DNA from: Acidobacteriota bacterium | GTDB taxonomy: Bacteria; Acidobacteriota; Aminicenantia; Aminicenantales; Saccharicenantaceae | Assembly (NCBI GenBank): GCA_028749205.1 | Contig: JAQULR010000004.1 | Span: 41,742-105,741, forward strand | DNA: 64,000 nucleotides | Reading direction: 5' to 3' | Shown: in pieces, positions 45,697 to 64,000 of the stretch | How positions within the stretch are numbered: position 1 is the first letter of the stretch | Layout: the number at the start of each line of letters is the position of its first letter | Position numbers and translations under genes: made by a program | Notes under the pieces: generated by a model | The model's input: only the letters and a program-made list of their open reading frames with translations | Told to the model about the DNA's origin: nothing | Database searches by the model: none

Positions 45697-45963
45697 ACTC
45701 TACTCTCCTTAAAAATTTCCGTTATAAAGGAGAGGAGTATGACCGATAAGGGCCCGTGCCCTCTTCCTTTATAATCGAGCAGTCGTATTATAGCATATAA
45801 ATAAAATAAATAAAGTGTAAAGCCTCTTAGACTAATTAGTATCCCCTTTTAGAAAGGAACGATTTGCTCTATAAGCCAAAAATGATTATTCTATATTAAT
45901 GATGGCGTTGCTCAACAGCTATTCCTTTCTAAAGATCTTGTAATGCCGATTAAGGAGGGATTC

Positions 45964-47106
45964 ATGGCTGTAAGAACGGTAAGAAAAAAAATCATTAACC
46001 ACTACTGGCCATTGGCCGCCGACTTTATAGCCCTTTTCCTGGTAATCGCCATCATGGCCGGCTTCTGGTCGGAATCTCTGTTAGCTCAGATTGAGCCATC
46101 TCATCCCGCACTTGAGCAAGTCCGTCCTATAAGGGATGATGTCGGCTTTTGCTGGAACCCTGAGAGCATGAAAATTCTGGTTGATTATTTAGCCAGCCAG
46201 GAAAAAGAAACCTTTGACTCTCAGGGCCTGGTAGCAGGTATCTCTCCTCATGATGATTATCTTTATGCCGGCAGGCTTTATTACTCTCTATTCAGTATCA
46301 TCCAGGCCAAAGAAGTGGTGATTTTCGGGGTTACTCATGGAGCAGTCCGCGATAGGATCAAAGGGCTGGATAGCCTGATCATTCTCGATGATTACCTGCA
46401 ATGGACTGGAGTTTTAAAACCGGTAGATATTTCTCCTCTTAGAGAGTATCTTAAAGCTCGTCTCAACCCGGAGTATTACCTCGTTAACCGCTGGGCTCAC
46501 CGGCTGGAACATTCTATTGAAGCTCTTATTCCTTTTCTTCAGTATTTCAATCCCGAGATAAAAATCACTCCTATCATGGTGGCTCCTATGCCCCTTGATA
46601 AGATGAAAAAGATTTCTGACGATCTGGCCGAAGCCATCGTATCTTATATGAAAGAAAACGGACTCAAAGCTGGCCAGGATATTTTCTTTCTAATTTCTGC
46701 TGACGGGAATCATTACGGCGAAGATTTTAACAACCTGGCTTTTGGTGAAGGGGAAGAAGCCTGGGAAAAAGCTCTGGCCTTTGACCGCAATATTATAGAC
46801 AGTTATCTGACAGGTGAGGTGACCGAAAAAAAAGTGACTGGCCTTACTAAGGAGCTCTGGGGAAAAACTTATCTGGATTACAATAACTCTTACTGGTGCG
46901 GGAAATATTCGATACCTTTTGGCCTTCTAACGATAGATAAAGTAATTACCAGAGCCACCGGCAAAAAAATTAAAGGTCGACTATTCAAGTTTTCTGATAC
47001 CTACAGCGAAGGAGTATTGCCCCTAACAAAAATCGGCCTGGGTATCACCGCTCCCTTTTCCCTGCGGCACTGGGTCAGTTTCTGCTCCCTCGGCTATTAT
47101 ATTTAA
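45964..47106 (+). CDS. Membrane-anchored MEMO1-family (AmmeMemoRadiSam system protein B-like) protein
   Basis: SPHDDYLYAG and EHSIEALIPFLQ motifs match the Memo family. There is an N-terminal TM helix. I moved the start to ATG 45964, which follows an AAGGAGGG RBS. Confidence 0.6.
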   Translation: MAVRTVRKKIINHYWPLAADFIALFLVIAIMAGFWSESLLAQIEPSHPALEQVRPIRDDVGFCWNPESMKILVDYLASQEKETFDSQGLVAGISPHDDYLYAGRLYYSLFSIIQAKEVVIFGVTHGAVRDRIKGLDSLIILDDYLQWTGVLKPVDISPLREYLKARLNPEYYLVNRWAHRLEHSIEALIPFLQYFNPEIKITPIMVAPMPLDKMKKISDDLAEAIVSYMKENGLKAGQDIFFLISADGNHYGEDFNNLAFGEGEEAWEKALAFDRNIIDSYLTGEVTEKKVTGLTKELWGKTYLDYNNSYWCGKYSIPFGLLTIDKVITRATGKKIKGRLFKFSDTYSEGVLPLTKIGLGITAPFSLRHWVSFCSLGYYI

Positions 47107-47110
47107 AAAA

Positions 47111-47132
47111 GGGGGACACACTATTGTGTCCC
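47111..47132. repeat. REP-like palindrome copy A (GGGGGACACACTATTGTGTCCC)
   Basis: 7-8 bp stem with a loop centred on TA, an A6 run 5' and a T-run 3'. It lies between convergent genes, 5 nt after the stop at 47106. Confidence 0.85.
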
Positions 47133-47167
47133 TGGTTTTTTTATCCCCTTTCTTTGGCTCCTTTTTT

Positions 47168-48148
47168 TCAGGCTTTACCCAGAACCATGGCCAGCAGAGC
47201 CATCCTGACATAAAGCCCATATTCCATCTGCCGAAAGTAGGCCGCTCGGGGATCTTTATCCACCTCCATGGCTATCTCGTTTACTCTGGGTAGTGGATGC
47301 ATGATTATCATCCGCTCCTGAGCCATCTCCAGCGTTTTAGGGCTAATTACATAGGCATCTTTGACCTTCTCATAATCTTCCAGGTTGTCAAACCTTTCTC
47401 TCTGAACCCTGGTCACATAAAGAACATCGGTTTTGGGCAGAACCTCTTCTAAAGTCAGATACTCTTTCTGAGGCAACTTCTTTTCCCCTACCTCATCAAT
47501 CACCTCCCGAGGCATCCTCAAGATCTCTGGTGAGACATAATTCAGTCTAATCTGATTAAACCGAGTGAGCAGCCGGGCTAAGGAATGGACAGTCCGCCCG
47601 TATTTCAGATCGCCCAGCATGGTGACTGTGAGATTATCTAAGCGGCCCAATTCTTCTCTTATGGTAAAGACATCGAGTAAAGCCTGAGTGGGATGCTCAC
47701 CCACCCCGTCTCCAGCATTAATTACCGGTTTCCCAGCAAACTCAGCGGCCAGAGCTGACGAACCCACTTCGGGATGTCTTAAAACAATCACGTCTGCATA
47801 GGCCGCCAGGGTTCTTACCGTATCGGGCAGGCTTTCACCTTTGGCTACCGACGAATATCGCACTTCGCTGATCGGAATCACTGCTCCACCCAGCCTCTGC
47901 ATAGCCGCCATGAATGAGGCGAAGGTCCTGGTAGATGGTTCGTAGAAGAGATTAGCCAAAATCTTGCCTTTCAGCAAATCAAAGGTTCCTATTCTCTCTA
48001 CCATCACCCGCATTTCATGAGCTACACTGAAAATGTACTCAAGGTCATTCCTGGTAAATTGTCTGACTGATAATATATTCTTGCCGTACCAGGGGGCCGT
48101 TTGCTGGTCACCAAAAGGCAGGTATGGACTTTTTGGTTTGGTAGGCAT
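47168..48148 (-). CDS. pyrB: Aspartate carbamoyltransferase catalytic subunit
   Basis: STRTF carbamoyl-phosphate motif ([10 protein letters not shown]), plus HPTQALLD-like and HPLPRV motifs. Confidence 0.9.
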
Positions 48149-48462
48149 ACTTACTCCTTTATATCCTCACTGGATTTTATTTTTTCTTTAATATATTCAT
48201 CCTGACTATCGCTGTCAATCTTAAGCTTTTTGGCGACCTGGACGTCAACTGGAGATGAGCCCACGACCTGGGTTATCTCATCAAGATAGTCCTCCACCAG
48301 CCACTACTCTTTCTTGATATTTTAAGAAGGAGTCAAAATGAGGCAGCAAGCCCGGAGTTTAATCTATCGGGTCAGAAACAACCAGGGCGCCGGGAAGAAA
48401 ACAGGTCGACTTAGATTATTTATGAATATTACAGGTTGATAAATATTGACAATCAAAAAACC

Positions 48463-48485
48463 GGGGACACGATAGTGTGTCCCCC
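48463..48485. repeat. REP-like palindrome copy B (GGGGACACGATAGTGTGTCCCCC)
   Basis: Same family in the opposite polarity to copy A. It lies 3 nt beyond the stop of the minus-strand gene 48488-49690. Confidence 0.85.
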
Positions 48486-48487
48486 TT

Positions 48488-49690
48488 TTATAAATATGGC
48501 TGCCAGTCAGACCGAGAAAATTCCAGCTTAAAGCTTCGACCTGACCAGAAAATTTCTACCTGACCAGATTCTCTGTGGCGGCCCTGGCTATATCTTAAGG
48601 TCAGCAGGGCGGCTTTCTTAACAACCGAGAACTTACTAGCTATCTCTCCTTCCCCCAGCTCAGCCAATCCGACTTTTGAACTTCCTTTTTGAATCTGGCC
48701 GCTATCATTCGCCCAACCAACCCGGTCATCATCCCTGATCTCTTCGCCTTCTTTCAGCCACCCAAGGTCGGCCTTTCCAGCGGCTCTCAAAGTAGCTGCA
48801 GACTGACTCTTCAGCCTGACCACAGTTAGAGGCCCCTTTACCCCTTCTACCGCTGAAATAAGTATGATCACGTCTGATTCCTGAGCCTTCTCCTTTATCT
48901 TTTCATTTTCCTGTTGGTTACGTCCGATAATAATCAGCCCTTCTTCCTCAAAAAAGACCCGACCTGCCTTAATCAGTTCTATATCTTCAGACAAAAGCCG
49001 TCCACGCCATTGCTGCAAATTCTTTAGCTTAGCGGAAAAAGCCGGGTCTGTTAGCAGGCAGCCCCCGGCCGGGGAAAGAAACTCTTTGAGCCTATACTTC
49101 TCGGCCAGCTCTAACTGCCGCTTTCTGGACCGCCCGGAAATATCCAGCAGCTTCTCCCGCTCAATCAACCCCTTTTTTTCTGGCAGAGTTTCCGGCAATA
49201 ATTTGGCCGACAGCGGTCTCAGCACCAGTCCTTTAATCCCGGAAAGTTTCTCAACAATCTGTAGAGCCTGCCGGTTCTGTGATTTTGGTCTTTCTCCGAC
49301 CACCTCACCAGTGGCTACAAAATCGGCAGCATATTCTGACATCAACTGACCAGCTATCCTGACCATCTGGCCATGGCAATCTAGACAGGGATTCATATTC
49401 CGGCCATAGCCATACTTGGGATTCTCTACGATGGGAATCTGTTCCTGGCTGATATCGATCACCACTAAGGGCCAACCCTGTTCAGCAGCTGCCTTTTGAG
49501 CCTCTTCCGCTCCAAAAAACTGGCTGCAAAAGGTCAGGCAGACTACTTCCACTCTCTGCTCTTCGAGTAATTTCGCAGCCAAGAGGCTATCCAGCCCGCC
49601 AGAAAAAAGCACCAGAGCCCGAACCTGTCTTTTTTTCTTCTCAGGTTTTCTAACTTCTATTATTTTCATACAGTCTGATCTTTCACTCAA
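48488..49690 (-). CDS. PP-loop ATP pyrophosphatase (ThiI/MnmA-like tRNA thiolation family) with an uncharacterised C-terminal domain
   Basis: SGGLDS PP-loop (LVLFSGGLDSLLAA) and NPCLDCH motif. The TTG start at 49690 is uncertain, and ATG 49669 is an alternative. Confidence 0.7.
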   Translation of the reverse strand: MSERSDCMKIIEVRKPEKKKRQVRALVLFSGGLDSLLAAKLLEEQRVEVVCLTFCSQFFGAEEAQKAAAEQGWPLVVIDISQEQIPIVENPKYGYGRNMNPCLDCHGQMVRIAGQLMSEYAADFVATGEVVGERPKSQNRQALQIVEKLSGIKGLVLRPLSAKLLPETLPEKKGLIEREKLLDISGRSRKRQLELAEKYRLKEFLSPAGGCLLTDPAFSAKLKNLQQWRGRLLSEDIELIKAGRVFFEEEGLIIIGRNQQENEKIKEKAQESDVIILISAVEGVKGPLTVVRLKSQSAATLRAAGKADLGWLKEGEEIRDDDRVGWANDSGQIQKGSSKVGLAELGEGEIASKFSVVKKAALLTLRYSQGRHRESGQVEIFWSGRSFKLEFSRSDWQPYL

Positions 49691-49702
49691 TAGACATAGA
49701 AG

Positions 49703-50566: not shown

Positions 50567-51223
50567 TATTCATACAAGTCCACATTACTTAAGAGTAGCC
50601 AGCATTGATGAAACGGAAAGTCGAGACATGATACGATCTTCTTAAACCGGTTTGTGTCCCTTATTTTCCGTGTGGCAACATAATCCACCTCTGCTATTAG
50701 AATAATCCATGTTAAATAGATTTATCATCAGGATCTCAAATCTGGATTCCTCTTATTTCTCAGAATCTTCCGGTCAGAAGAGGTTAATTCCTGTCAGCAA
50801 ACAGCACTATCTTTTTTCTTCTGGCTCACTCCCAGCCTGGCCTTCTCCGAAAGCCTCCAAATTTAATAGGCCCCTCAACAGTTTTTCTTCTTGTAGTAGA
50901 AAAGGCCGGTTTCCGAATTAATCTCCTTTTTTGTTGCGGGCTATTGTTTCCTTCTCTGTGTCGTCTAGGTATCTAAGCTATGGATAGCTGATCAAAAACA
51001 GGGCTCCAGAGGGTTGCCCGATCATAGATTTAAGCCAGTATGCCCAGAAAATTTTCTGTACTCTGCAATTTCTCGTTTTTAATTAAAAGGGAAGAATTGT
51101 CTTTCGTTAACGTCTTAATTACATCAGGAGCAGAATAATTATATATTTAGAGGCGAAGAAACATGGCTGCCCCTTAGCCCTCATAACCGAATATGGGGCC
51201 GAGCATTCAGCTTGAGGAGATTA

Positions 51224-51460
51224 ATGCCGGAAAGCATCTTAGATTATGTGATTCAATTGGACACAGAGAGCTCCCCTTGGCTGCTGCCCCGCAGGGAACC
51301 AGTCTTGCTAGTAACTCCTATTGTAGAGGATGATAGGTTTACCCTGTGCTACAAAGGCTTTAGAATAACCTCCTGCACTCCCCTCAAGGATCGCCTTTTT
51401 AGAGATGCTTCTTTAATGCGGAAAGCTCTGGATTATCTTTACTTGATTCAGTTAAAATAA
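51224..51460 (+). CDS. Small hypothetical protein (78 aa)
   Basis: A GAGGAG RBS lies 5 nt before ATG 51224. The gene ends 36 nt before the M28 peptidase gene. I recognise no family. Confidence 0.4.
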   Translation: MPESILDYVIQLDTESSPWLLPRREPVLLVTPIVEDDRFTLCYKGFRITSCTPLKDRLFRDASLMRKALDYLYLIQLK

Positions 51461-51496
51461 ATCTTATTTCTTTCACCAAGCCTATAGGAGGTTTAA

Positions 51497-53353: not shown

Positions 53354-53359
53354 TAAAAA

Positions 53360-53383
53360 GGGGGACACCCTAGTGTGTCCCCC
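53360..53383. repeat. REP-like palindrome copy C (GGGGGACACCCTAGTGTGTCCCCC)
   Basis: It lies between convergent genes, 7 nt after the stop at 53353 and 5 nt before the stop at 53388. A-run and T-run flanks are present. Confidence 0.85.
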
Positions 53384-53387
53384 TTTT

Positions 53388-56111
53388 TTACAGGTTAAAG
53401 CGATAAGAGAACTTTATAAGGAAGATGTTGTCGCCGGGGGCGGTGAATAAGTCACCCAGGTCTCTCCACAGTGACAGATTACCGGGATTACTAAAGTCTG
53501 CCCGGTTTTGGGTCCAGACCACATAAAGCAGAGACCCAGGCCGGTATTCCCATCTGAGAACCATAGTCCCTCGCATCGATTTATAATTAAAATCAGGTTT
53601 GAAGATTTCAAATGAGGAGGCCGGGCCATCGCCGTCCGGGTCAACTACATACCTGCCATCTTCATCCACAATAGTTGAGCCGTCCTTTCCATAAACCAGG
53701 TAATCATAAGCCCGCGGCCGGTTAAGCTGCTTGAACCGGTCATACTTCCCTACCGCTATAAAAGGCTGTAGATACACCTGAAGGCTGAGTTTCGGAGTGA
53801 AAATCCAGTTGAGCCGGAATTCAGTAGCAATGGTCTTCTGGTCTATCCGCCCAAAGATGTACCTCGTCCCGTAAGTCTCGGTCATCAGGGGATCAGCCAC
53901 CCGAGTCACCCACTGGAGTTCATCCAGGGAATAGTTAACCATAGGCCCTATCGAAAGGCTCAGATTGCTTCTTGGCTTCCAGCGCACCGAAAAACTGGCC
54001 GACCAGTAATTAGAATTATCCCTGGTCCGCTGATAAGAAAAATACCCATTTACAACAACCGGCTGCCTCGAATCGCTCGTCAGGACAAGCTGGTGGAGAA
54101 AGCCAGTCGGAGTCCTGGCTAACGGCCCTCCTCTGGTCAGCTGATTGGTCAGAGTAGCTGGCATAAAGAGGAAGGTGTATTCAAATTGCCACCAGTTAGC
54201 CAGAACGCCATTAAAATCAGCGAATAAACAGCCGAATAATTTATTGCCACCAAAATCATACTGCTGGGTGAAGCCAGCAAACAGCATTGACTGCCGGAAG
54301 ACTTTGCCTGGTTTGAGCCATTGATAACCATAAAAGCCATTTAAATCAATTAAATCCGAGCCCATGCTCTGAAAACCAGCATCGTTGGGATCAAAGCCTG
54401 GCGATAGAGCCCCGGCTGAGACCAGAAACAGCGAATTTCCCTGCTGCTTGACCAGCTTGAATTGCCCGGCCCAACCATTAAGGTTAGTAGCTTCAGGATT
54501 AAGGCTAACATGGGTAGCGTCAGGCCGCTGGAAATAATGCAGGGGATTTTGCTGAAGCCGGTATATATCTTCCTGGCTACCCTGGATAAAAGTCCCACCC
54601 AGCCAGCCGCCGACAACCCAGGTTCTTTTTTTGTCCAGAAAGGACCAGCCATCAGCGGCTAAGCTGAAAGCATTTTTATTCAGGATAGCAGCCAGCGGCT
54701 CGTTATCCAGGTCTCTCATGACCCCGGTGGCCATCAAACCTATTCCCTGCTGGCCATCATTGATGTCTTTCTGGGCTCGCAAAACCCCATAATAACTTAA
54801 TGGTTCAACCTCTTCTTTGTAGCGGGTGCTAAGATCATCGACTGTGGCAAATTCTCGCCCGGTAACTGCACTGATAAAACCAAGGTTCCAGCCACTACCA
54901 ACCCTCCCGGTAAGCTTAAAAGCGCCCAGGATGGTGGTCCGGTCTGGGAAATCAACGTAGCCCTCATGAAGAGGATAACCCTGAGGTTCTCGGCCAATAC
55001 GTCGGCTGTAGAAAAGGCGCGGGTTAGGCCAGTTGACATTGACATTCAGATAGACGCCACCTTGCCCAAAACTATTGAACATCGAGGCCCCTTCTATAAA
55101 AAACGGCCTCTTCTCTTGATAATAAGTCTCATAGGCACTCAAGTTGATAACCGCCGGATCAACTTCAACCTGGCCAAAATCAGGATTGACCGTCAGGTCA
55201 AGGTTGAGATTGCTTTTGAGTCCCGCTTTTAAGTCAAACCCTACGTCTCCTGCATACTTGTGACCGGTCTCAAAGGGGTTGCCAGGCTCGGCTGGCCTGA
55301 ACTGAGCCTGTCCCACTGAATAAGGATAAAGCTCCACCCGGCGCCCTGGTTTGATCTTCTCGATGCCCTCAAGCCGGGCAAAGCGTGAAACATAGGCAAT
55401 ATCCTCTTTGGGCACCCAGGCAAAAGCTACCTTTTCCTGTTTGCGTTTGATGGTCCGCTGGAAATTTACTCCCCAGAGGTATTTATCCTTTTTAGGAAAG
55501 CGAAGCTGATTAAAAGGAATTTGCATTTCGATAGTCCAGCCGTCGGCCACTCGGGCCACTTTGGCTTCCCAGATACCATCCCAGGTGGTATCTTCACCAA
55601 TGTCGTTTGACAGAGCTTCGTCCACAATGGAACCAGCGGGGTTTATACCGAACAAATAGCCGCTGCGGCGGTCAAAATACGGGTCTACACAGAAGAAGAA
55701 CCAGTCTGAATCCACAAAAGAATCGCGGCGACCAAGAAGACCTTTTATTCCTTGAGGGTCAGAATCATGACAGTAGGCGGCTACATAAAGGTTGGAATCA
55801 TCATAAGCCACCCAGGCTTCGGTCAACTCGGTGGCCGGAGCACCGTCAAGCGGGTCTTGTTGGAGGAAATCACTGACCGGTTCATTTTCTTTCCAGACTC
55901 CTTCCTCGAGCAGACCATCAAGTTTGATAGGTTCATTGAGCCTGATGGCCCTGACCACTTTCTTTTCCTGGGCCTTTTTCAAAGCTTCCTTATCGACTTC
56001 AGCTTGCTTGGTGAGGTTTTTGTTAACATTAAGAGGGGTAGCTGATAAACTTAAAGTCAGGTTAACCACCAGCAACCATAAGATTCCTGGAATAATTCTT
56101 TTTTTGATCAT
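53388..56111 (-). CDS. CBM9-like plus DUF5916 domain outer-membrane/secreted protein
   Basis: Signal peptide. The N-terminal segment IKLDGLLEEGVW...VAYDDSNLYVAAYCHD...GYLFGINPAG is typical of the carbohydrate-binding family 9 / DUF5916 architecture. The remainder is long and beta-rich. Confidence 0.75.
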   Translation of the reverse strand: MIKKRIIPGILWLLVVNLTLSLSATPLNVNKNLTKQAEVDKEALKKAQEKKVVRAIRLNEPIKLDGLLEEGVWKENEPVSDFLQQDPLDGAPATELTEAWVAYDDSNLYVAAYCHDSDPQGIKGLLGRRDSFVDSDWFFFCVDPYFDRRSGYLFGINPAGSIVDEALSNDIGEDTTWDGIWEAKVARVADGWTIEMQIPFNQLRFPKKDKYLWGVNFQRTIKRKQEKVAFAWVPKEDIAYVSRFARLEGIEKIKPGRRVELYPYSVGQAQFRPAEPGNPFETGHKYAGDVGFDLKAGLKSNLNLDLTVNPDFGQVEVDPAVINLSAYETYYQEKRPFFIEGASMFNSFGQGGVYLNVNVNWPNPRLFYSRRIGREPQGYPLHEGYVDFPDRTTILGAFKLTGRVGSGWNLGFISAVTGREFATVDDLSTRYKEEVEPLSYYGVLRAQKDINDGQQGIGLMATGVMRDLDNEPLAAILNKNAFSLAADGWSFLDKKRTWVVGGWLGGTFIQGSQEDIYRLQQNPLHYFQRPDATHVSLNPEATNLNGWAGQFKLVKQQGNSLFLVSAGALSPGFDPNDAGFQSMGSDLIDLNGFYGYQWLKPGKVFRQSMLFAGFTQQYDFGGNKLFGCLFADFNGVLANWWQFEYTFLFMPATLTNQLTRGGPLARTPTGFLHQLVLTSDSRQPVVVNGYFSYQRTRDNSNYWSASFSVRWKPRSNLSLSIGPMVNYSLDELQWVTRVADPLMTETYGTRYIFGRIDQKTIATEFRLNWIFTPKLSLQVYLQPFIAVGKYDRFKQLNRPRAYDYLVYGKDGSTIVDEDGRYVVDPDGDGPASSFEIFKPDFNYKSMRGTMVLRWEYRPGSLLYVVWTQNRADFSNPGNLSLWRDLGDLFTAPGDNIFLIKFSYRFNL

Positions 56112-56469
56112 CTAATCCATAATCATTTAGGTAATCTGCGTTGCCTATAACGCTCTCATTAACATATTATTAAACGAAGACGGAAGGGATAAGGTTCACT
56201 ATTTCAAAAAAAATAAGGGGGGAAAAGGACCTAATCTAATCTGCCGGGTTTTTAGCCGGATAAGGCCGGCTCAAAAAAATCATTAATAAGGCTGACATAT
56301 TATCAGAATTGCTAAAATAAAGAAGGACCATTAAGTATCCCGTCTGGTAAGTAATTTACCAAATTCCTCCGCCAGGAAGCGACACCTACCTGGTGGATAA
56401 AATCGCTTTACATTTTTTGTAGATTCAAGGATTATATGGCATTAATGAGACTTGAGGAGATAGTGACCC

Positions 56470-57456
56470 ATGATAACTAAGAGAATTAAGTCAGTTGGAG
56501 TTTTGTTGACTGTTGCCTGTCTTTCGAGCCTGCCAGTGATGGCTTTTGCCCAGGAGAGAACCGGCGGAGGTCGAGGACAACAGGCTGCCCCGGATTTTAT
56601 TCAGGTTTTACTCAGACCCAAGTTCATCACCATGCTGGTAATCGCCGGGTTGGTTCTGGTTCTATTGCTCACCAGAAAGATGAATAACAAGCTTAAAGTG
56701 CCAATCCTGCTTTTGTCAACCTTCCTGTATGGCATCTCCGCCAATCTGGGCCTTAAACTCTTTGCTGGCTTTTCGATGCATCCTTCGCCAATCTGTGCGG
56801 CCACTAAATCGATACTTTATGGTTTCCGTATACCCATGATTGTCACTTTAGCAGTGATTCTATTTTTAACCCTGGTCGGGCCGAAGCTTTTCTGTGGCTG
56901 GGTTTGCCCGGTCGGGGCTATTCAGGAACTCATTGCCATGTTGGCGGATAAGGCAAAAATTAAAAGAAAAAAGCTAAATTTCCGTTTGACTCAGAGCATC
57001 AGAGTGTTGATTTTTATCGCCTTCATTTTTTTGAGCTTGACAGCTACCCTCCACACTGTATCCAATGGCCAGGTGGTGGCTCTGTCACTTTATGATTATA
57101 TTAACGCTTTCCATGGCTATGAAATGAGCCTTCAGCCGACCTTTGTCGATAATGTGGTCCATTTTTTACCGTTTGTTCTAACGCTAATTTTTGCCTTTGT
57201 TACTTATCGTCCTTTCTGTTACATAATCTGCCCTATCGGCCTCATTACTAATGTGGTTGAGCAGATTGCCCTCTTCCGGGTGGTCAAAAAGAAAGATGCC
57301 TGTACTGACTGTCAGGATTGTGTCAGCAAATCACCTTGTCCGACCACGGCTGAGATACTTAAGGAGTCTGTCTTGAAACCGGATTGTTTCTCCTGCACCG
57401 TCTGTACCAGGAGCTGCAGCCTGGACCTGCTCCGCTTCGGCCTAAAGAACAAATAA
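56470..57456 (+). CDS. Membrane-bound 4Fe-4S ferredoxin-type protein (NapH/NosR-like)
   Basis: Paired CxxCP motifs in TM context (FCGWVCPVG, FCYIICPIG). C-terminal clusters CTDCQDC...CP and CFSCTVCTRSC. Confidence 0.75.
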   Translation: MITKRIKSVGVLLTVACLSSLPVMAFAQERTGGGRGQQAAPDFIQVLLRPKFITMLVIAGLVLVLLLTRKMNNKLKVPILLLSTFLYGISANLGLKLFAGFSMHPSPICAATKSILYGFRIPMIVTLAVILFLTLVGPKLFCGWVCPVGAIQELIAMLADKAKIKRKKLNFRLTQSIRVLIFIAFIFLSLTATLHTVSNGQVVALSLYDYINAFHGYEMSLQPTFVDNVVHFLPFVLTLIFAFVTYRPFCYIICPIGLITNVVEQIALFRVVKKKDACTDCQDCVSKSPCPTTAEILKESVLKPDCFSCTVCTRSCSLDLLRFGLKNK

Positions 57457-57466
57457 ATTGGAAAAA

Positions 57467-57489
57467 GGGGGACACAATATCGTGTCCCC
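57467..57489. repeat. REP-like palindrome copy D (GGGGGACACAATATCGTGTCCCC)
   Basis: It lies 11 nt after the stop at 57456 and has the same polarity as copies A and F. Confidence 0.85.
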
Positions 57490-57615
57490 GATTTTTCCCC
57501 TATTTAAGAGCCAGATGCATCCGGGAGAATGTGGGCGGAGTATCGATAGTTATTAATATCTTAGAAGCTTTAGACTTTTAGCTGTTTGTAACTTAAAGAA
57601 AAATAAGCAATAAAA

Positions 57616-58860
57616 CTAGGGACACAATAGTGTGTCCCTCATTTCTTTGAGGAATGGTTCTTTAAGGCTGTGGCCGGAAAAGAAGATTACTCCGTTAGCT
57701 CCGGCTTCCTGGGCCAGCCTGATCTCCTCTATCATAATATCCGGTGTGCTTTGATTGTGCGAGGTGCCAAGGCCAAGGCCGGCACAGACCAGGACCTTTT
57801 TACCCGGGCCAGCCGGGTCCCTGTAAGAAACAGCTTTTTTGATAAGCTTATCAAAAAGGGCCGTATCGTTCGTATAGAGCATCGGGCAGATCATCTCCAC
57901 CAGGCCTTGACGCATCCATTCTTCCCAGTCCTGTCCTATGAGAACCCGGGCATTATCGGCATCAGGAAAGACAGCTGCACTGATTTTAACCTGCCTGCCA
58001 GTCTTGTTTAGCTCTGCCCGGAGTTCCTTAACTAAGCGGGTCACCTGGTCGCGGTTCCACTCCAGCCAGACATTCCAGTATGGATTTCCAGAATCGCGGG
58101 CTTTAAGGCTGCCAAAATCAATCCCGGTTTCCTCTTTGAAAAGCTGCCTGGTTTGAGCATCATGACTGAAGTAAGGCTCGGTTGGTTCACAGGGAAAACG
58201 GATATAATCAAGATGAATCCAGTTAACTCCATACTTTCTGACCAGCTCAGTCATTAGGCTTATCTCATAGGCCCGGACCTGGGGAAGAGCCGGATTGACG
58301 GTGCGAACCATTTCCCGTCCTGGTCCAACTATCAGCCATTCTGGATGCTCCCTGACCTGACCAAGAAGCCCGGTCTCAGGAAAGACGCAGAACCAGGGAT
58401 GGACCTCCATCTTTCTTTTCCGAGCCTCTGCCAGAAAAAGGCCAAAGAAATCCCAGTCATAAGCCAGGTCTTTCACCCCGATTTCGCTGTTGTAATAGAC
58501 ATGGCCGCTGGTATCTTTAACCAGCATGATAAGGGTATTTATACCAGCCTTAGCATAGTCATCAAGAGTCCTTTTTATCTTATCTGCAGCAAGTTCTTTA
58601 TCCGGTCCGAACATGCCAGGGTGCATCCAGACTCCGCTGACCCAGGGACTCAGGGCTGACTCCGGAAGGTCAACCTTTGGTTCTTTAATGGGCTTAAGTT
58701 TTTGCCCATTTTTACCTGGGCTACCTGTGATAACTGAGGCCGCGCCTCCTATGATCAAAAATACCAGCAAAAAACTCAGCCCTCTTATAATTCCTGTCCT
58801 TAGTGCCGTCTGCAGATTAGATAGCATCTTGGCCCTCCCAGAGATATTTCTTGTCATCAT
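57616..58860 (-). CDS. Glycoside-hydrolase-like GHL10 / UPF0748 (YngK/YddW-like) family protein
   Basis: N-terminal TM/signal. GINTLIMLVKDTSGHVYYNSE and IHLDYIRFP motifs are typical of the family. Confidence 0.7.
   Translation of the reverse strand: MMTRNISGRAKMLSNLQTALRTGIIRGLSFLLVFLIIGGAASVITGSPGKNGQKLKPIKEPKVDLPESALSPWVSGVWMHPGMFGPDKELAADKIKRTLDDYAKAGINTLIMLVKDTSGHVYYNSEIGVKDLAYDWDFFGLFLAEARKRKMEVHPWFCVFPETGLLGQVREHPEWLIVGPGREMVRTVNPALPQVRAYEISLMTELVRKYGVNWIHLDYIRFPCEPTEPYFSHDAQTRQLFKEETGIDFGSLKARDSGNPYWNVWLEWNRDQVTRLVKELRAELNKTGRQVKISAAVFPDADNARVLIGQDWEEWMRQGLVEMICPMLYTNDTALFDKLIKKAVSYRDPAGPGKKVLVCAGLGLGTSHNQSTPDIMIEEIRLAQEAGANGVIFFSGHSLKEPFLKEMRDTLLCP
57619..57638. repeat. REP-like palindrome copy E (GGGACACAATAGTGTGTCCC), embedded in the 3' end of a CDS
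   Basis: It is the exact reverse complement of the 20-nt core of copies A and F. It encodes the last 7 codons (RDTLLCP) of the gene 57616-58860. Confidence 0.85.
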
Positions 58861-58900
58861 TTATCGGAGAATCTTTAATCATGTGCCATAACCTTTTCTA

Positions 58901-59977
58901 TTAATGGATGAAGCCGGCTCCCAGGACTGATTCCCCCTCGTATAAGACGGCAACCTGGCCAGGGGTTACGGCTTTATAGGGCTCCTGCAGGGTAACTTCG
59001 ACCGTTCGCCCCCCGTTTTCAGCAACCAGTCGGCAGTCAAGCTCGGGTGACTTATAACGAATCTTTACCTTAGCTTTAATTTCCTGTCCAGCTTCTGGGA
59101 GACGGGCAATCCAGTTCATTCCCTCTACTGAAAATTTCTCAGTTAGCAGGTCTTTTTCTTCACCGAGATAGACGGTGTTGGTGGTGGCCTCTATCCTGAT
59201 CACATAGAGACGCTGCCCGCCGGCCACGCCCAGTCCCCGGCGCTGGCCAACTGTGTAATTCGCGATGCCGTTATGCCGTCCGATGGTCTGGCCTTTCAGG
59301 TCTTTAATCGAACCTGGTTTTCCCTTATCCAGAAGGTCGCGGTAATCTCCGGCGTAGAAATCCTGGCTCTCTTCTTTATCGCTAACAGGCAGGTTGTGGT
59401 CACGGGCAATTTTTCTGACCTCAGCTTTGCTCAGTTCTCCCAGCGGAAACAGGCTTCGGCTGAGCTGCTTCTGGCTTAACAGAGATAAAAAATAGGACTG
59501 GTCCTTTTTAGGGTCAAGGCCCTTGAGCAGAAGCCAGCGTCCGCTCCTCTCATCATGCTTAACTCGGGCATAATGGCCGGTGGCAAAATAATCATAGTCC
59601 CGGCCAAGCCTCCGGCAGCCATCGAGCAGCAAACCAAATTTTATTTCCGCATTGCACTTAACACATGGATTGGGAGTTCGGCCCGATGAATATTCCTGGC
59701 GGAAATAATTAAGTATTCTGTCCTCATATTCCTGCCGCAAGTCGACAATATGGAAATCTATGCCGAGATGCTCAGCCACAGTTTCGACTGCTTTTATTTC
59801 TTCATTTTTTTTCTCACCGAAGCAGGCTGGTTTTCGCCTGGTCGGAATCGCATCTTCCGAGCTTATTTTCATGGTGACTCCGGTGACTTCATATCCCGCC
59901 TGTTTAAGCAGAAGGGCAGCCACCGAGGAATCCACCCCGCCACTCATCGCCACCAGCACTCTCTTAGCTTGAGCCAT
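58901..59977 (-). CDS. mnmA: tRNA-specific 2-thiouridylase
   Basis: PP-loop VAMSGGVDSSVAA, NPCVKCN, and full MnmA length and C-terminal barrel. Confidence 0.9.
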   Translation of the reverse strand: MAQAKRVLVAMSGGVDSSVAALLLKQAGYEVTGVTMKISSEDAIPTRRKPACFGEKKNEEIKAVETVAEHLGIDFHIVDLRQEYEDRILNYFRQEYSSGRTPNPCVKCNAEIKFGLLLDGCRRLGRDYDYFATGHYARVKHDERSGRWLLLKGLDPKKDQSYFLSLLSQKQLSRSLFPLGELSKAEVRKIARDHNLPVSDKEESQDFYAGDYRDLLDKGKPGSIKDLKGQTIGRHNGIANYTVGQRRGLGVAGGQRLYVIRIEATTNTVYLGEEKDLLTEKFSVEGMNWIARLPEAGQEIKAKVKIRYKSPELDCRLVAENGGRTVEVTLQEPYKAVTPGQVAVLYEGESVLGAGFIH

Positions 59978-60015
59978 CTTTCTCCCGCCCCTTTATTTTA
60001 ACACCAATTAAAAAA

Positions 60016-60037
60016 GGGGGACACACTATTGTGTCCC
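60016..60037. repeat. REP-like palindrome copy F (GGGGGACACACTATTGTGTCCC)
   Basis: Identical to copy A over 22 nt. It lies between divergently oriented genes, 39 nt upstream of the mnmA start. Confidence 0.85.
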
Positions 60038-60470
60038 GCGTTTTTCTATTACCCCCCTTCTCTCCTGGATAGCATACTCAAAACCCAACAACCCAATTGA
60101 GCCTTTTATTTGACTTTACAGTAAACTTTTATGAAAATAAAAAAGACATCTTAGGGGAAGGAAGAGGATGCTGACTCCAGGCAATCTAAGATTTCTTTCT
60201 TTATTATTACCAATTGTAGCCTTTACCATCTTTCCCTTTCAGGCCATGACTGATAAGGCTCAATTGCCGTCAGCCAGGAAAAAGAGGTGTCTGCTCCATT
60301 TGCCATGCCTTTCAGCGACAACCCCGGCCTCCTGGTAATTAAGCCAAAGGGCTGGAATTTTTTCTCTCCTGAGCCCGGTCAGGGCACCCTCCCCCTGCTT
60401 ATCTATTATCTATCCGCAGGGCAAGCTGGAAATCGAAGAAAGCCAACTGCTGTTCAAAGAAGCCATCTTA

Positions 60471-61184
60471 GTGGACATTCTTGACAGCCGACTAGACCTT
60501 AGGTTGGAAGACCTAATTAAAGAAGAAGTTGACCAGTTAGAAAACTACTACGGCTGGTTGACAATCCAGTCTACAACAGTAATGAGTTCAATGTCTGGCT
60601 TCAGATATCCGGTCTTAAAAATTGGAGGAGAGGAATCTGAGAAAATTATTTTTCTAGCTTTTAGCCTGGCAGGCGAGAAGGTAATTCAGATCATTCTGCT
60701 AACACATCCCGAGACTTATGAGAATTCCTGGCCGGCTTTCTTTTTTACTTTAATGACACTGCAGCCACTGCCAATCCATCTTGACCAGGATATCCTGAGA
60801 CTTCAGAGTAAGCCCGTTTTCACTCTGTTTGAAACCGACCTCCGGCAAAAACTACTTGATAAATCACCATACGAATATTGGGCGGCTTACCGGCCAGAGA
60901 CTGAAGTGCGCTTCAAGCATATTCAAAAATTCTCAGGTTATCAGCTTAATTTCGAAAAATCATTCAAGGTGATTTCTGTTGACAATGAAGGCGTGGTTAT
61001 GGAACTTCTGTTTGACTCAGTAAACTCGCTGAGCAACTGGTCTGAATTTCGGACAGGGGACCTGGAAAAGATTAATGTCGCCATGCTTCAGATAGCTTCA
61101 AGTGATATGGGGCTTTCCAAACAGATAGAGGAAAGTTTCAGGTCATTGGCTTCAGCCAATCTCAAGGTTAGCCTCAAAAACTAG
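60471..61184 (+). CDS. Hypothetical protein; probably the 3' part of a frameshifted longer gene starting at 60168
   Basis: GTG start in the track. The frame is open upstream to 60339. Two upstream short ORFs read as a natural N-terminal continuation: 60168-60338 carries a signal peptide, and 60257-60484 is in another frame. Confidence 0.55.
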   Translation: MDILDSRLDLRLEDLIKEEVDQLENYYGWLTIQSTTVMSSMSGFRYPVLKIGGEESEKIIFLAFSLAGEKVIQIILLTHPETYENSWPAFFFTLMTLQPLPIHLDQDILRLQSKPVFTLFETDLRQKLLDKSPYEYWAAYRPETEVRFKHIQKFSGYQLNFEKSFKVISVDNEGVVMELLFDSVNSLSNWSEFRTGDLEKINVAMLQIASSDMGLSKQIEESFRSLASANLKVSLKN

Positions 61185-61193
61185 AAAAAACCA

Positions 61194-61216
61194 GGGACAC
61201 GAGAGTGTGTCCCCCC
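61194..61216. repeat. REP-like palindrome copy G (GGGACACGAGAGTGTGTCCCCCC)
   Basis: It lies 10 nt after the stop at 61184 and has A-run and T-run flanks. Confidence 0.8.
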
Positions 61217-61234
61217 TTTTTAAGGAAGGTTATA

Positions 61235-62425
61235 ATGGCAAAAAAATCTTTGGCTATCGGGATATTACTTTGCTTCCTAATTTCTATCCCTGCTTGGCCG
61301 GCTAAAAAAATCACTACACTGAACTGGGCTGCATCCATTAACAATTCCGATTCAAAGGCCGAGCCGCAGGTTCAGGTTATTGAAAATCCGGCTAAACCTC
61401 CAGGCAGAAAACCCGCCCGGGTGGTTGAGCTAAAGCCCGTGCTATCTATCATGGATCAACCCGAGAATTTTTTCTTTAAATATCCATCTGATATCAAGTT
61501 GAGCCGGAACGGGCATATATTTGTCTTGGATAAGGAGCAGATTCTACATTTTGATTCTTCAGGAAAGTTTTTGGGAAACTACTTCAAAAAAGGTCAGGGG
61601 CCAGGAGAGATGCAGATGGTAACAGATATCGTTATTGATGGCGAAAATTTAGTGGCTTTTGACATCTATCCCAGGAAACTCTGCCGCTTTGATTTCAACG
61701 GAAATCTGCTGTCTGAAATTAAAGTAAGCGCACCGCAGATAGGAGGCAGTCTAGTGCATATTGACGGAAGCAGTTATTATTTTGTGCGGTCAGATTTTCC
61801 GGACACAGGCGGGAAATGGATTAAGGTGGATAATCTTAACTATTTTCAGGTTTACGACGCAAAGACAAATAAGCTGGAGGAACTGGCAGCTTTTCCCATA
61901 ACCACCTGGGCAATATCTCAAGGAGGTTCCAGAGGCCGGGCCGATACAACCCCATTCAGGGCTATACCTTATAAGAACAATCAATTTATCATCTCTCACA
62001 CAGAAGACTACCTGCTTAAAATATTCGATGTAGAGAAAAAGCAAGTGGTCGCCACCTTCAGGCGAAAATACAAGAGAGTAAAAATACCGGAGAAAAAAGA
62101 GCCTTCGGCCTGGATTGGAATCGGCGGTCAACGGTATTCATATAATCCAGCCTACTTTAATGACATATTAGAAGTCCTGGTTGTGGGTGATTTGATCTGG
62201 GCCCTGACCTCGACGGTGGATAAAAGCAAAGGTCTGCTGGTTGATGTCTTCAACCAGGAAGGGAAATACGTTGATTGCTTTTATCTGAAATTTCCGTTTG
62301 AAGTAAAGCCAAATAGCAGCACGCTGGGAATAGGTCTGGCTATCGACCCTGAGGGCCAGAGCCTGTGGGCCACAGTCAAAAATCCCGACGAAACCTTTTC
62401 AATAAAAAAATTCCAGCTGGACTAA
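61235..62425 (+). CDS. 6-bladed beta-propeller family protein (NHL-like), secreted
   Basis: Signal peptide MAKKSLAIGILLCFLISIPAWPA and a repetitive propeller-like sequence. I moved the start to ATG 61235, because the track start GTG 61205 lies inside repeat copy G. Confidence 0.65.
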   Translation: MAKKSLAIGILLCFLISIPAWPAKKITTLNWAASINNSDSKAEPQVQVIENPAKPPGRKPARVVELKPVLSIMDQPENFFFKYPSDIKLSRNGHIFVLDKEQILHFDSSGKFLGNYFKKGQGPGEMQMVTDIVIDGENLVAFDIYPRKLCRFDFNGNLLSEIKVSAPQIGGSLVHIDGSSYYFVRSDFPDTGGKWIKVDNLNYFQVYDAKTNKLEELAAFPITTWAISQGGSRGRADTTPFRAIPYKNNQFIISHTEDYLLKIFDVEKKQVVATFRRKYKRVKIPEKKEPSAWIGIGGQRYSYNPAYFNDILEVLVVGDLIWALTSTVDKSKGLLVDVFNQEGKYVDCFYLKFPFEVKPNSSTLGIGLAIDPEGQSLWATVKNPDETFSIKKFQLD

Positions 62426-62439
62426 AAACGGAAAAAATA

Positions 62440-62461
62440 GGGACACGATAGTGTGTCCCCC
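62440..62461. repeat. REP-like palindrome copy H (GGGACACGATAGTGTGTCCCCC)
   Basis: It lies 15 nt after the stop at 62425 and 66 nt upstream of the RAYT-type transposase start. Confidence 0.85.
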
Positions 62462-62527
62462 TTTTTTCTCCTAATTTTTTCTATGTAGTGAAAAAAAACT
62501 TGGTCGTCCAACGTCTATTCATTTATC

Positions 62528-63187
62528 ATGCCCAGGATAGCCCGAATCGTCATTCCTTACATCCCCCATCACGTAGTCCAGCGCGGGAACCGCAATCAGC
62601 GGGCCTTCTTTTCAGAAGATGACAAAAAGCTCTACCTGAAAATACTGGGCTTTAATTGCTCAAAGGAAAAAATTAAAATCTGGTGCTATTGTGTGATGGA
62701 TAATCACATTCATCTTGTGGCGGTCCCAGAAAGTGCTGAGCATCTGGTCAAAGCCATCGGTGAGACTCACAGAAAATACACCTGGATGATAAACACTCGC
62801 AATAACTGGAAAGGTTATCTCTGGCAGGGTCGGTTTCGGTCATATCCGATGGACGACGTCTATCTTCTCTGTTGCGTCAAATATATTGAGCGAAATCCGG
62901 TAAGGGCTGGTCTGGTCAGACTGGCCGAAGAATACCAGTGGTCAAGCGCCCGGGCCCACGTTTTTGGATTAAAGGATCCTGTGCTCAGTCCACTGCCTTT
63001 AGTCTCTCAAGTCAAGAACTGGAGTAATTTTCTCCGGGGGGAAGATAAGGAAGAAGATTTAGAACTTCTCAGGAAGAATCAAACAGTCGGCCGACCTCTT
63101 GGCAGCGAGGATTTTATCGAGATGATTGAAAAAACGACAGGGATCCGTTTAAGGAAAAGACCATCTGGACACCTTAGAAAAATATAA
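62528..63187 (+). CDS. rayT: HUH / Y1 single-strand DNA transposase of the REP-associated tyrosine transposase (RAYT, IS200-like) type
   Basis: N-terminus RIARIVIPYIPHHVVQRGNRNQ. HUH motif in MDNHIHLVAV. Catalytic-Tyr motif KYIERNPVRAGLV. The ORF is intact (219 aa). Confidence 0.8.
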   Translation: MPRIARIVIPYIPHHVVQRGNRNQRAFFSEDDKKLYLKILGFNCSKEKIKIWCYCVMDNHIHLVAVPESAEHLVKAIGETHRKYTWMINTRNNWKGYLWQGRFRSYPMDDVYLLCCVKYIERNPVRAGLVRLAEEYQWSSARAHVFGLKDPVLSPLPLVSQVKNWSNFLRGEDKEEDLELLRKNQTVGRPLGSEDFIEMIEKTTGIRLRKRPSGHLRKI

Positions 63188-63959
63188 AGCGGATAGCTAC
63201 AAACACCAGAAATATTCCATAAAGCATTTTGACTCGGGCGGTAGGCATGCGAATATTGATTCTGGCCCCGAAGACTGTCCCCAGCAGCAGGCCAGCAGCC
63301 AGCAGAAGGGCGATGTTAATGTCCAGGGTGCCCGCCTTATAATAATATATTACGCCAGGTAGACCAATCGGCGGCAACAGGGCAGCCAGCGAGGTGGCGA
63401 TAGCTCGTTTCGGTGGATATTTTAAGAACATAACCAAAAACGGCACGATGATGTTACCCCCTCCGATGCCAAACATCCCGGACATCACTCCGGCCACCAA
63501 ACCCACTCCCACCAGAGCCAGAAAATGGGGGTGGGGATGGTTATTGTTGTCAGGTTCAACTTCCGGTAAATAGCTTTCGCCGCGGAATCTTTTGAGCTTT
63601 TCCAGCGGTTTAATAAAATTCCAGCTGACATAAAGGCAAAAAATTCCATACAGGCGGCGCATTACGTCACCCGGGAGACTGTGAGCCAGCCAAGCTCCGA
63701 TCACCACTGACATCAACAGCCCTGAAGCAATGAATATGGCCGCTCTCAAGTCCAGGATACGGGCACGATAATAGGTAATCACCCCGAAAATACCCACGGG
63801 CAGCATGATAGCCGCCAGCGAGGTGCCGGTGGCTTTAATCAGAGGAAAGCCGGCCAGAATCACCATGACCGGCACCATGACGATGCCGCCGCCTATTCCA
63901 AAAAGGCCGGCAAAAATCCCGGCCAAAAATCCGATCGCCACAACTACCACGGCATTCAT
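63174..63959 (-). CDS. TauE/SafE family sulfite-exporter-like membrane protein
   Basis: Duplicated 4-TM halves with GIGGG motifs in both. Its 3' end overlaps the convergent transposase gene by 14 nt. Confidence 0.75.
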   Translation of the reverse strand: MNAVVVVAIGFLAGIFAGLFGIGGGIVMVPVMVILAGFPLIKATGTSLAAIMLPVGIFGVITYYRARILDLRAAIFIASGLLMSVVIGAWLAHSLPGDVMRRLYGIFCLYVSWNFIKPLEKLKRFRGESYLPEVEPDNNNHPHPHFLALVGVGLVAGVMSGMFGIGGGNIIVPFLVMFLKYPPKRAIATSLAALLPPIGLPGVIYYYKAGTLDINIALLLAAGLLLGTVFGARINIRMPTARVKMLYGIFLVFVAIRFIFF

Positions 63960-64000
63960 GCTGTGGATTATACCAAAATAAAAACGGGCATACGAGGGTG

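Follow-up and report, generated by a model that had tools for sequence, protein, structure and literature searches.

The 64-kb stretch of DNA analysed here (the window), from Candidatus Saccharicenans (Aminicenantes), contains an intact gene for a Y1 (HUH) tyrosine transposase at 62528..63187, with one copy of a short GGGACAC palindrome on its left and further copies dispersed in intergenic regions nearby. Taken as a whole, the evidence makes it probable that the gene encodes a TIRYT-type enzyme that is fixed and vertically inherited, that has lost the right end of its unit and that acts in trans on the dispersed palindromes. An earlier reading by a model given only the letters (the sequence-only reading) had linked the gene to the GGGACAC palindromes. 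This link was upheld: the copy closest to the gene (copy H) lies at its left end, and the stem of the palindrome is the tip of the repeats that surround the genes of relatives. All of the source data are metagenome-assembled. The contexts of homologues, given below by their L numbers, were gathered individually in order of decreasing identity; a protein scan of metagenomes alone gave three loci.

The Y1 gene and its protein

The open reading frame (ORF) is uninterrupted and its protein carries IPHHVVQRGNRNQ, NHIHLV and YIERNPVRAGLV. The description in the sequence-only reading of a 219-aa ORF resembling a RAYT (a tyrosine transposase associated with repetitive extragenic palindromes, REPs), with HUH and tyrosine motifs, was thus borne out by the ORF call, the motifs and the profile search that it had recommended. 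Pfam Y1_Tnp (PF01797) matched residues 15-123 with 46.9 bits against a cut-off of 23. In the protein, the HUH motif is H60-I61-H62, the catalytic tyrosine is Y119 and the metal ligand is N123, followed by WSS at 138-140 and a C-terminal extension spanning 140-212.

The HUH and tyrosine residues occupy the catalytic positions, as indicated by alignment to a solved structure and by invariance among homologues. A sequence search with the Y1 protein reached a single solved structure, E. coli TnpA-REP (4ER8; E = 0.02, 17% identity). In the alignment, H60/H62 fall on H59/H61, Y119 on Y115 and N123 on N119; in 4ER8, Y115 is the catalytic residue and N119 a metal ligand (Messing et al. 2012). An AlphaFold2 model built with 48 homologues had a mean predicted local distance difference test score (pLDDT) of 89.6 and a predicted template modelling score (pTM) of 0.86. 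Its top fold match in the PDB was again 4ER8_A, with E 1e-8 over 161 aligned columns; the IS608, ISDra2 and IS200 transposases came next. In the 48-sequence alignment, the N-terminal HH-QRGN, N59-H60-x-H62, Q100-x-R102 of WQGR, Y119-x-E-x-N-P, S139-S140-A141, H144 and W165 are invariant, and W99 is nearly so. The C-terminal extension of about 80 residues is likewise kept across the 48 homologues. A Pfam search with the last 79 aa, accepting E up to 10, returned no domain and no DnaA-like or helix-turn-helix (HTH) match.

The nearest database proteins are annotated as 'transposase' and come from Candidatus Saccharicenans. The family is large and widespread: a word-indexed protein search gave more than 2,300 matches at E <= 1e-3, and an exhaustive search of representatives at 50% identity gave 527 at E <= 1e-30 and 28,525 at E <= 1e-3.

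Assignment to the TIRYT type

TIRYTs were described as Y1 genes lying between terminal inverted repeats with the tips GGGGWSAS (Di Nocera et al. 2013, BMC Genomics 14:522, PMC3733652). Their repeats sometimes overlap the 3' end of the gene, are sometimes self-complementary and form moderately abundant families; the same survey reported a clearly delimited group from Acidobacteria. Quentin et al. (2018, PMC6006769) equated subclass 2.1 of TnpA-Y1 with the TIRYTs and with RAYT Group 1 of Bertels et al. (2017, PMC5581495). For subclass 2.1 they gave a median length of 238 aa, the HuH motif NHVH or NH[YF]H, W[EQ], YIELNP or Y[IV]HLNP around the tyrosine, 'SS' as a serine motif in the tail and a C-terminal extension that is conserved, with about 1.9 copies per genome that are about 49% mutually identical.

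The tyrosine motif of the Y1 protein, Y119-I-E-R-N-P124, is of the class 2 form Y---NP. The motifs of subclass 2.1 are present as NHIH, WQ, YIERNP and WSS in a protein of 219 aa, two of which each depart from the published consensus at a single residue. The palindrome stem (G)GGGACAC (GGGGACAC) fits the TIRYT tip consensus. A flanking repeat with such a tip is found on the left side only in the window (GGGACAC stem, 62440) and on both sides of the gene in L142, L129, L132, L131, L107 and L140. As assigned by motifs and flanks, the gene fits the TIRYT or subclass 2.1 type.

Conservation of the locus and loss of the right end

Contigs of the same species (L001-L004) encode a Y1 protein identical over residues 1-215 and carry the same upstream palindrome. 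The convergent arrangement of the Y1 gene with a TauE gene (locus A) is kept in L141, L131, L142 and L136/L137, at 86, 76, 75 and 59% Y1 identity, and TauE is the right-hand neighbour in every locus-A orthologue examined. The divergence of Y1 parallels that of TauE (84, 76 and 71% identity) and that of MnmA. This shared synteny and parallel divergence argue for vertical inheritance, and on this evidence the gene is fixed at its chromosomal locus in Saccharicenans and related Aminicenantes.

The ends of the unit vary among these orthologues. A 37-nt inverted repeat with 97% complementarity encloses the gene in L142; its arms are TAAAACGGGGGACACACTACATATTTACCTAATTTTC and the complement of this sequence, the right one lying directly against the stop of TauE. 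L131 has short palindromes 74 nt upstream of the gene and inside its last eight codons, and one more beyond TauE. A longer REPIN-like palindrome, GGGGACGTGATACCCTGTCCC n3-7 GGGACAGGGTATCACGTCCCC, is found 158 nt upstream of the gene in L137, with half-copies just downstream. The window and L141 are missing the stretch of about 150 nt that in L142 separates the PGRP codons, which are conserved, from the stop of TauE and carries the right repeat; no complete palindrome was found between the Y1 stop and TauE in the window. By this comparison the right end of the Y1 unit is absent from the lineage of the window and L141. A lost right flank had been suggested by the sequence-only reading, which also proposed a synteny comparison with relatives that lack the gene; the comparison with relatives that carry it confirmed a conserved Y1-TauE locus, with the right repeat kept in L142 and L131. 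The 14-nt overlap of the two genes given there agrees with the ORF coordinates.

The gene has not decayed along with its right end. Between the window and L141, dN is 0.070 and dS 0.45 (dN/dS 0.155), an estimate limited to L141, with synonymous sites saturated against more distant orthologues. This ratio points to purifying selection on the Y1 gene in the lineage without a right end.

In L130, a 38% homologue, the gene is flanked by a different inverted repeat, TTTCGGTGACAGTGCA, so the repeat type changes with the protein lineage. Two further observations concern repeats of this kind. On the contig of L136/L137 (DJWO01000010), long REPIN-like palindromes occupy intergenic sites of the syntenic region at 5352-5400, 8489-8525 and 9795-9843; they consist of two inverted 21-nt GGGGAC...GTCCC units with 17-23-bp stems and replace the short palindromes there. 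In L130 (JAESFN010000002, about 9800-10000), a segment of about 60 nt that includes the left repeat is duplicated upstream of the homologue, the duplicates being separated by a fragment that encodes the protein's own N-terminus (MARLARLVVPGLPHHIT). This arrangement looks like a partial tandem duplication of the 5' end of the gene.

The sequence-only reading had also pointed to GGACACCTTAG, inside the last Y1 codons, as a possible half-site of the right REP. This part did not hold. At the same place L141 has GGCCGCCCTAG (GGC CGC CCT AGA AAA ATA TAA, encoding G R P R K I stop, PGRPRKI*), the same-species contigs have GGCCACCCTTAG (GGC CAC CCT TAG, giving 216 aa) and the window has GGA CAC CTT AGA AAA ATA TAA (219 aa), which differs from the same-species contigs by a 1-nt indel and two substitutions. 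The C-terminal consensus of the family in the 48 homologues is PGRP(K/R)K. Because GGACACCTTAG aligns to the GRP codons in L141 and in the same-species contigs, it is probably no repeat remnant, and it most likely represents mutated Gly-Arg-Pro codons. The 6-nt match to a repeat arm within about 100 nt is estimated not to be significant alone. In L131 the palindrome is inserted a few bases 3' of the GRP site, after TAGAAAAAT. A relic of the right repeat had been considered here, as first suggested by the last-codon palindromes of L131, L107 and L140 and by L113, and was dropped after the alignment with L141 and the same-species contigs. In L113, from a further Saccharicenans genome, one palindrome starts with GGGACACCTTAG, and in view of this the site may have undergone gene conversion toward the repeat.

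The left end

The stem of copy H ends 68 nt before the ATG of the Y1 gene by manual count. The sequence-only reading had the palindrome correctly upstream of the gene, although at 66 nt; its description of copy H as the last copy is right within the window, but the same-species contigs have two more just beyond TauE, at or past the window end. Copy H lies 15 nt 3' of the stop codon of the upstream beta-propeller gene. Its RNA fold (-19 kcal/mol, z -4.4) is terminator-like on both strands, and it looks as if it doubles as the terminator of that gene. An identical palindrome stands upstream of Y1 in L141 and a similar one in L131, despite a different upstream neighbour (a beta-propeller gene in the window, an epimerase gene in L141). 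Since the left palindrome is kept while the neighbour differs, it belongs to the Y1 unit, and copy H is on this comparison the retained left-end repeat. The sequence TCCTAATTTT after copy H was considered as an inner remnant of a long inverted repeat; the same-species contigs are without it (a 10-nt indel), and it was not relied on.

Two conserved boxes lie in the leader between the left repeat and the ATG (Table 1). In an upstream alignment of the window, L141, L131, L142, L140, L132 and L005, both are kept at locus A and at the loci B and C described below. No Shine-Dalgarno sequence was found in the Y1 leader. The boxes are possibly a promoter (extended -10-like), an operator or a recognition site of the enzyme.

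Paralogues and an empty locus

A tblastn search with six paralogues found one Y1 gene in the window and no fragments, and the gene has no tnpB neighbour there. The single copy supposed in the sequence-only reading is shown for these 64 kb. Relatives carry two or three diverged Y1 paralogues, about 58-63% identical, at fixed loci. Locus B lies between the DUF5916 and M28 peptidase genes (L134, L140, L107) and locus C between the A24 peptidase gene and TilS (L005, L132). L134 (locus B) and L137 (locus A) are about 10 kb apart on one 366-kb contig and encode proteins 58% identical. At loci B and C the flanks are repeats of the GGGGACAC type, in the form of palindrome doublets on both sides, 43-nt inverted arms (L132, and also seen in L129) or a 35-nt perfect direct repeat (L134). 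L131, L107 and L140 have palindromes on both sides of Y1, and the one downstream falls within the last codons.

In the window, locus B is empty. Its flanking genes have orthologues at the filled locus of relatives (M28 70-77% and DUF5916 79-81% identity), and the gap between them is filled by a solo palindrome; at least three related genomes (L134, L140, L107) have a second Y1 paralogue there. The order at the filled locus is DUF5916 stop, palindrome(s), Y1 gene, palindrome(s), M28 stop. Judged by this comparison of filled and empty sites, the palindromes mark the boundaries of the presence/absence difference; the two states fit either deletion between repeats or insertion into a repeat.

Palindromes in the window

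Eight exact GGGACAC-N6-GTGTCCC copies were found in the window, against 0.00 expected from 100 dinucleotide-preserving shuffles, and nearly all GGGACAC and GTGTCCC heptamers of the window fall within such palindromes. The loop-oriented consensus of the eight is A5-6 GG GGGACAC ACTATY GTGTCCC NNN T5-6, and the opening 12 nt of this consensus (GGGGGACACACTA) agree with GGGGGACACACTAC, the tip of the terminal repeat in L142.

In seven of the eight cases the palindrome is 5-15 nt from a stop codon or extends over the last codons of a gene, and its neighbouring genes are convergent or co-directional; the remaining one is in a divergent gap. All eight fold stably (-13 to -26 kcal/mol), the copy at 53362 best. 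A consensus scan listed seven as terminator-like on both strands, the 53362 copy not being listed. From their structure of A-run, GC-stem and T-run, the palindromes are predicted to be bidirectional intrinsic terminators. An Rfam search of the whole window returned no known RNA family.

The copies are clustered. All eight are within 47113-62459, where they occupy seven of the ten intergenic gaps of at least 20 nt, compared with none of 27 in 1-47000 (counted by hand from the ORF lists); a hypergeometric test, made post hoc, gives a probability of about 1e-5. This clustering may reflect local spread from the Y1 gene. The first 47 kb contain only a couple of unrelated terminator-like hairpins (21905, 35351). 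The palindrome-rich region has the same GC content as the rest and a synteny common to relatives, and is not island-like.

Other Aminicenantes (Ch100, MAG-74, L140) carry this core in pairs spaced about 74 bp, a REPIN-like arrangement. When a genome collection was scanned with the pattern, Aminicenantes made up 11 of 120 blocks among the matches listed, with up to 6 exact copies per 8 kb in those blocks (9 with a relaxed pattern), and other phyla gave mostly single chance matches.

Proposed mechanism

The ancestral unit would have been a TIRtron, in which the Y1 gene lay within inverted repeats of about 35 nt with the tips GGGGGACAC...GTGTCCCCC. Its left end survives as the short hairpin of copy H, and the Y1 frame now runs into the 3' end of TauE. 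Having no right end, the unit in the window cannot excise, copy or move itself. Most likely, the enzyme would still act in trans on hairpins that the GGGGACAC/GTGTCCCC palindromes adopt in single-stranded DNA. In the manner of IS608 TnpA and E. coli TnpA-REP, and in line with the established chemistry of HUH enzymes, it would bind, cleave and rejoin these hairpins through Y119 and a metal site formed by H60, H62 and N123. The palindromes are envisaged as miniature tip-to-tip derivatives of the terminal repeats, which would have moved into intergenic regions nearby and taken on the role of terminators. Three elements of this scheme are inferred, namely the cleavage and joining of hairpins by the enzyme, the origin of the palindromes from repeat tips and their function in transcription termination.

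A more specific proposal can be made tentatively and is perhaps better regarded as doubtful. A subclass 2.1 enzyme may have made a REP-like family through collapse of the repeat tips into 20-34-nt hairpins (GGGGGACAC-ACTAT-GTGTCCC), which then spread mainly to intergenic regions nearby and came into use as bidirectional terminators, the enzyme being kept by selection as a maintenance factor after losing its right end. If true, this would show how REPs can arise from an inverted repeat, and it would amount to a repeat system of an uncultured phylum that acts locally and is useful to the host.

Several points weigh against an enzyme that acts on dispersed palindromes. Quentin et al. (2018, PMC6006769) saw no REP-like sequences for subclass 2.1, and no biochemistry of any subclass 2.1 or TIRYT enzyme was found in that paper, in Di Nocera et al. 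(2013) or in a literature search for the term. For L138 and L139, two of the homologues, no more than a weak or single flanking motif was seen, on the left. L142, with intact inverted repeats, has no short palindromes in 16.8 kb, so a Y1 gene is not always accompanied by dispersed palindromes. Finally, the palindromes are identical between the window and the same-species contigs L001-L004, and there is therefore no direct sign of recent movement.

Alternative explanations

The same identity between strains would suit a different account, in which the Y1 protein has been taken over by the host for a task that does not involve the palindromes, for instance the processing of single-stranded DNA at replication forks, the palindromes being terminators under selection and their adjacency to the gene historical. 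Purifying selection that continues after loss of the right end, a locus that is fixed and vertically inherited, palindromes that are all terminator-like with seven of eight directly after a stop codon, and the other roles proposed for subclass 2.1 by Quentin et al. (2018, PMC6006769) are all in keeping with it. Nevertheless, historical adjacency does not explain why the palindrome stem is the tip of the repeat that brackets the Y1 gene in relatives, why the repeat type shifts with the protein lineage (the different inverted repeat of L130, the long REPIN-like form of DJWO01) or why palindromes bound the presence and absence of the paralogue at the M28/DUF5916 site. Recruitment for a palindrome-unrelated function is considered unlikely, though it deserves to be kept in mind.

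A TIRYT acting in trans was preferred with greater assurance over two other identities of the gene. A classical RAYT (TnpA-REP, subclass 2.2/2.5, Bertels Groups 2/3) residing in a REPtron, with the palindromes as canonical REPs, would account for the best match to a solved structure, by sequence and by fold, being E. coli TnpA-REP, for REP_Tyr_transpos (NF047646) being the only NCBIfam match and for the repeated extragenic palindrome beside the gene. However, the NCBIfam score was 51.9 bits against a cut-off of 80, and the feet of the hairpins, made of an A-run plus GG and CC plus a T-run, have no GT[AG]G tetranucleotide; the right side of the Y1 gene has no hairpin. Subclasses 2.2 and 2.5 are about 150-165 aa long with the motifs DH[LF]H and YIHYNP (Quentin et al. 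2018, PMC6006769), as opposed to 219 aa with a C-terminal extension of about 80 aa, NHIH and YIERNP here, and relatives have long terminal inverted repeats instead of REPs. With a score below the cut-off and the motifs and flanks of subclass 2.1, the gene is not a classical GTAG-REP RAYT, and this identity is very improbable. The label 'RAYT' of the sequence-only reading thus stands in so far as the protein is RAYT-like, of class 2, with intact catalytic residues and not of the IS200 type, and fails as regards the classical kind. Least credible of all is an active insertion sequence of the IS200/IS605 type, which the Pfam family name 'Transposase IS200 like' and the database annotation as transposase would suggest. 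The tyrosine motif is Y---NP and not Y---Q, the protein has 219 aa, the window holds one copy with no fragments and no tnpB neighbour, the unit has no right end, orthologues as distant as 59% identity still occupy the same chromosomal locus, and paralogues within a genome are about 58% identical rather than near-identical.

Comparison with known systems

The Y1 gene is an ordinary addition to the known TIRYT family, not a new kind of system. It shares with TIRYTs and TIRtrons (PMC3733652) the GGGGWSAS repeat tips, a fairly constant short distance from repeat to gene, an occasional overlap with the 3' end, repeats that are in part self-complementary and moderately abundant, as singles, dimers and clusters, and, judging by relatives, several diverged genes per genome. 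In contrast, the window keeps only the left repeat, a 20-nt hairpin in place of a long inverted repeat, and its palindromes have A/T runs, are likely bidirectional terminators and cluster near the gene; the host, an Aminicenantes (Saccharicenans) lineage, was not covered in that survey. With subclass 2.1 (PMC6006769) it has in common Y---NP, an NHxH HuH motif, WQ, YIE.NP, 'SS', the C-terminal extension, a length of about 220-240 aa, no insertion sequence features and, judging by relatives, about two diverged copies per genome. Unlike that subclass as reported, the Y1 gene here and in relatives is tied to repeated palindromes or inverted repeats, and no DnaA-like or HTH Pfam domain is detectable in its C-terminal extension.

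E. coli TnpA-REP in its REPtron (4ER8; Messing et al. 2012, Ton-Hoang et al. 2012) is the closest structure, with the HUH, tyrosine and asparagine positions kept, and is likewise a chromosomal, vertically inherited gene beside cognate extragenic hairpins, with a low copy number that relatives here also show; single-strand cleavage and rejoining at hairpins would be the expected chemistry here by analogy. The differences are the low identity of 17%, the lack of a GTAG guide tetranucleotide, the C-terminus that is about 80 aa longer, and flanks that are terminal inverted repeats or perfect short palindromes, not imperfect REPs or bacterial interspersed mosaic elements (BIMEs). The TnpA proteins of IS200/IS605 elements (IS608, ISDra2) have the HUH/Y1 fold and ends set by DNA secondary structure, whereas their Y---Q motif, core-only length of about 130-155 aa, multicopy state, frequent tnpB partner and mobility have no counterpart in the window.

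An Aminicenantes example is thereby added to the little-studied TIRYT or subclass 2.1 branch of the HUH tyrosine transposases. A decay series is seen at one locus: a 37-nt inverted repeat that is still intact, then short palindromes flanking the gene on either side, then a palindrome on the left alone. Combined with locus B, which is filled in some genomes and empty in the window, it gives a picture of a unit that decays while the gene is retained and whose ends may turn into widespread terminator hairpins. A subclass reported without REP-like partners is linked to short terminator-forming palindromes, and a defined hairpin substrate is supplied for testing the enzyme. For annotation, such 'transposase' calls are not mobile insertion sequences.

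Features of the window and minor observations

Table 1. Position of the Y1 gene, its flanking features and the palindrome copies in the window
Feature	Position	Strand	Description
Y1 (HUH) tyrosine transposase gene	62528..63187	+	219 aa, ATG start, intact ORF; TIRYT / TnpA-Y1 subclass 2.1 type
Convergent TauE/SafE-family membrane protein gene	63174..63959	-	Pfam TauE 175 bits; 14-nt overlap with Y1 gene
Copy H	62440..62459		Palindrome GGGACAC-GATAGT-GTGTCCC = GGGACACGATAGTGTGTCCC; A-run and CC+T-run flanks, about 62432-62467
Conserved leader boxes between left repeat and ATG	62488..62519	+	GTGAAAAAAAAC at 62488-62499 (TGATAAAAAT in relatives); ACGTCTATT at 62511-62519
'Half-site' of the sequence-only reading	63167..63177	+	GGACACCTTAG; inside last Y1 codons, beside TauE stop
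Palindrome copy	61194..61213		GGGACAC GAGAGT GTGTCCC; between 237-aa gene and beta-propeller gene
Palindrome copy	60018..60037		Divergent gap upstream of mnmA
Palindrome copy	57619..57638		Overlaps last codons of GHL10 gene (57616..58860, -)
Palindrome copy	57469..57488		13 nt after Fer4_5 gene stop
Solo palindrome	53362..53381		14-bp extended stem; fills 34-nt gap (53354-53388) between convergent M28 peptidase and DUF5916 genes
Palindrome copy	48464..48483		5 nt after stop of minus-strand gene 48488..49690
Palindrome copy	47113..47132		Between convergent genes 45943..47106 (+) and 47168..48148 (-)

At the end of the window (63976-64000), the last 25 nt show 8 differences from L002 3841-3869, where the same-species contigs carry the palindrome GGGGACACAAGAGTGTGTCCCC. 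Nearly all other differences between the window and these contigs are also at hairpin-related spots, at 63164-63172 and in the 10-nt indel at about 62472-62481. They may represent strain variation focused on repeats, or assembly error at hairpins.

Several Y1 homologues have C-terminal tails encoded by the repeat, such as ...RGHLQVSP..., ...TGDTILIH and ...IVSPE. Gene-calling programs place the start of the DUF5128 beta-propeller gene at GTG 61205, within the 61194 palindrome. A likelier start is the ATG at 61235, which has AAGGAAGG before it and a signal-peptide-like sequence after it; this would leave the palindrome intergenic.

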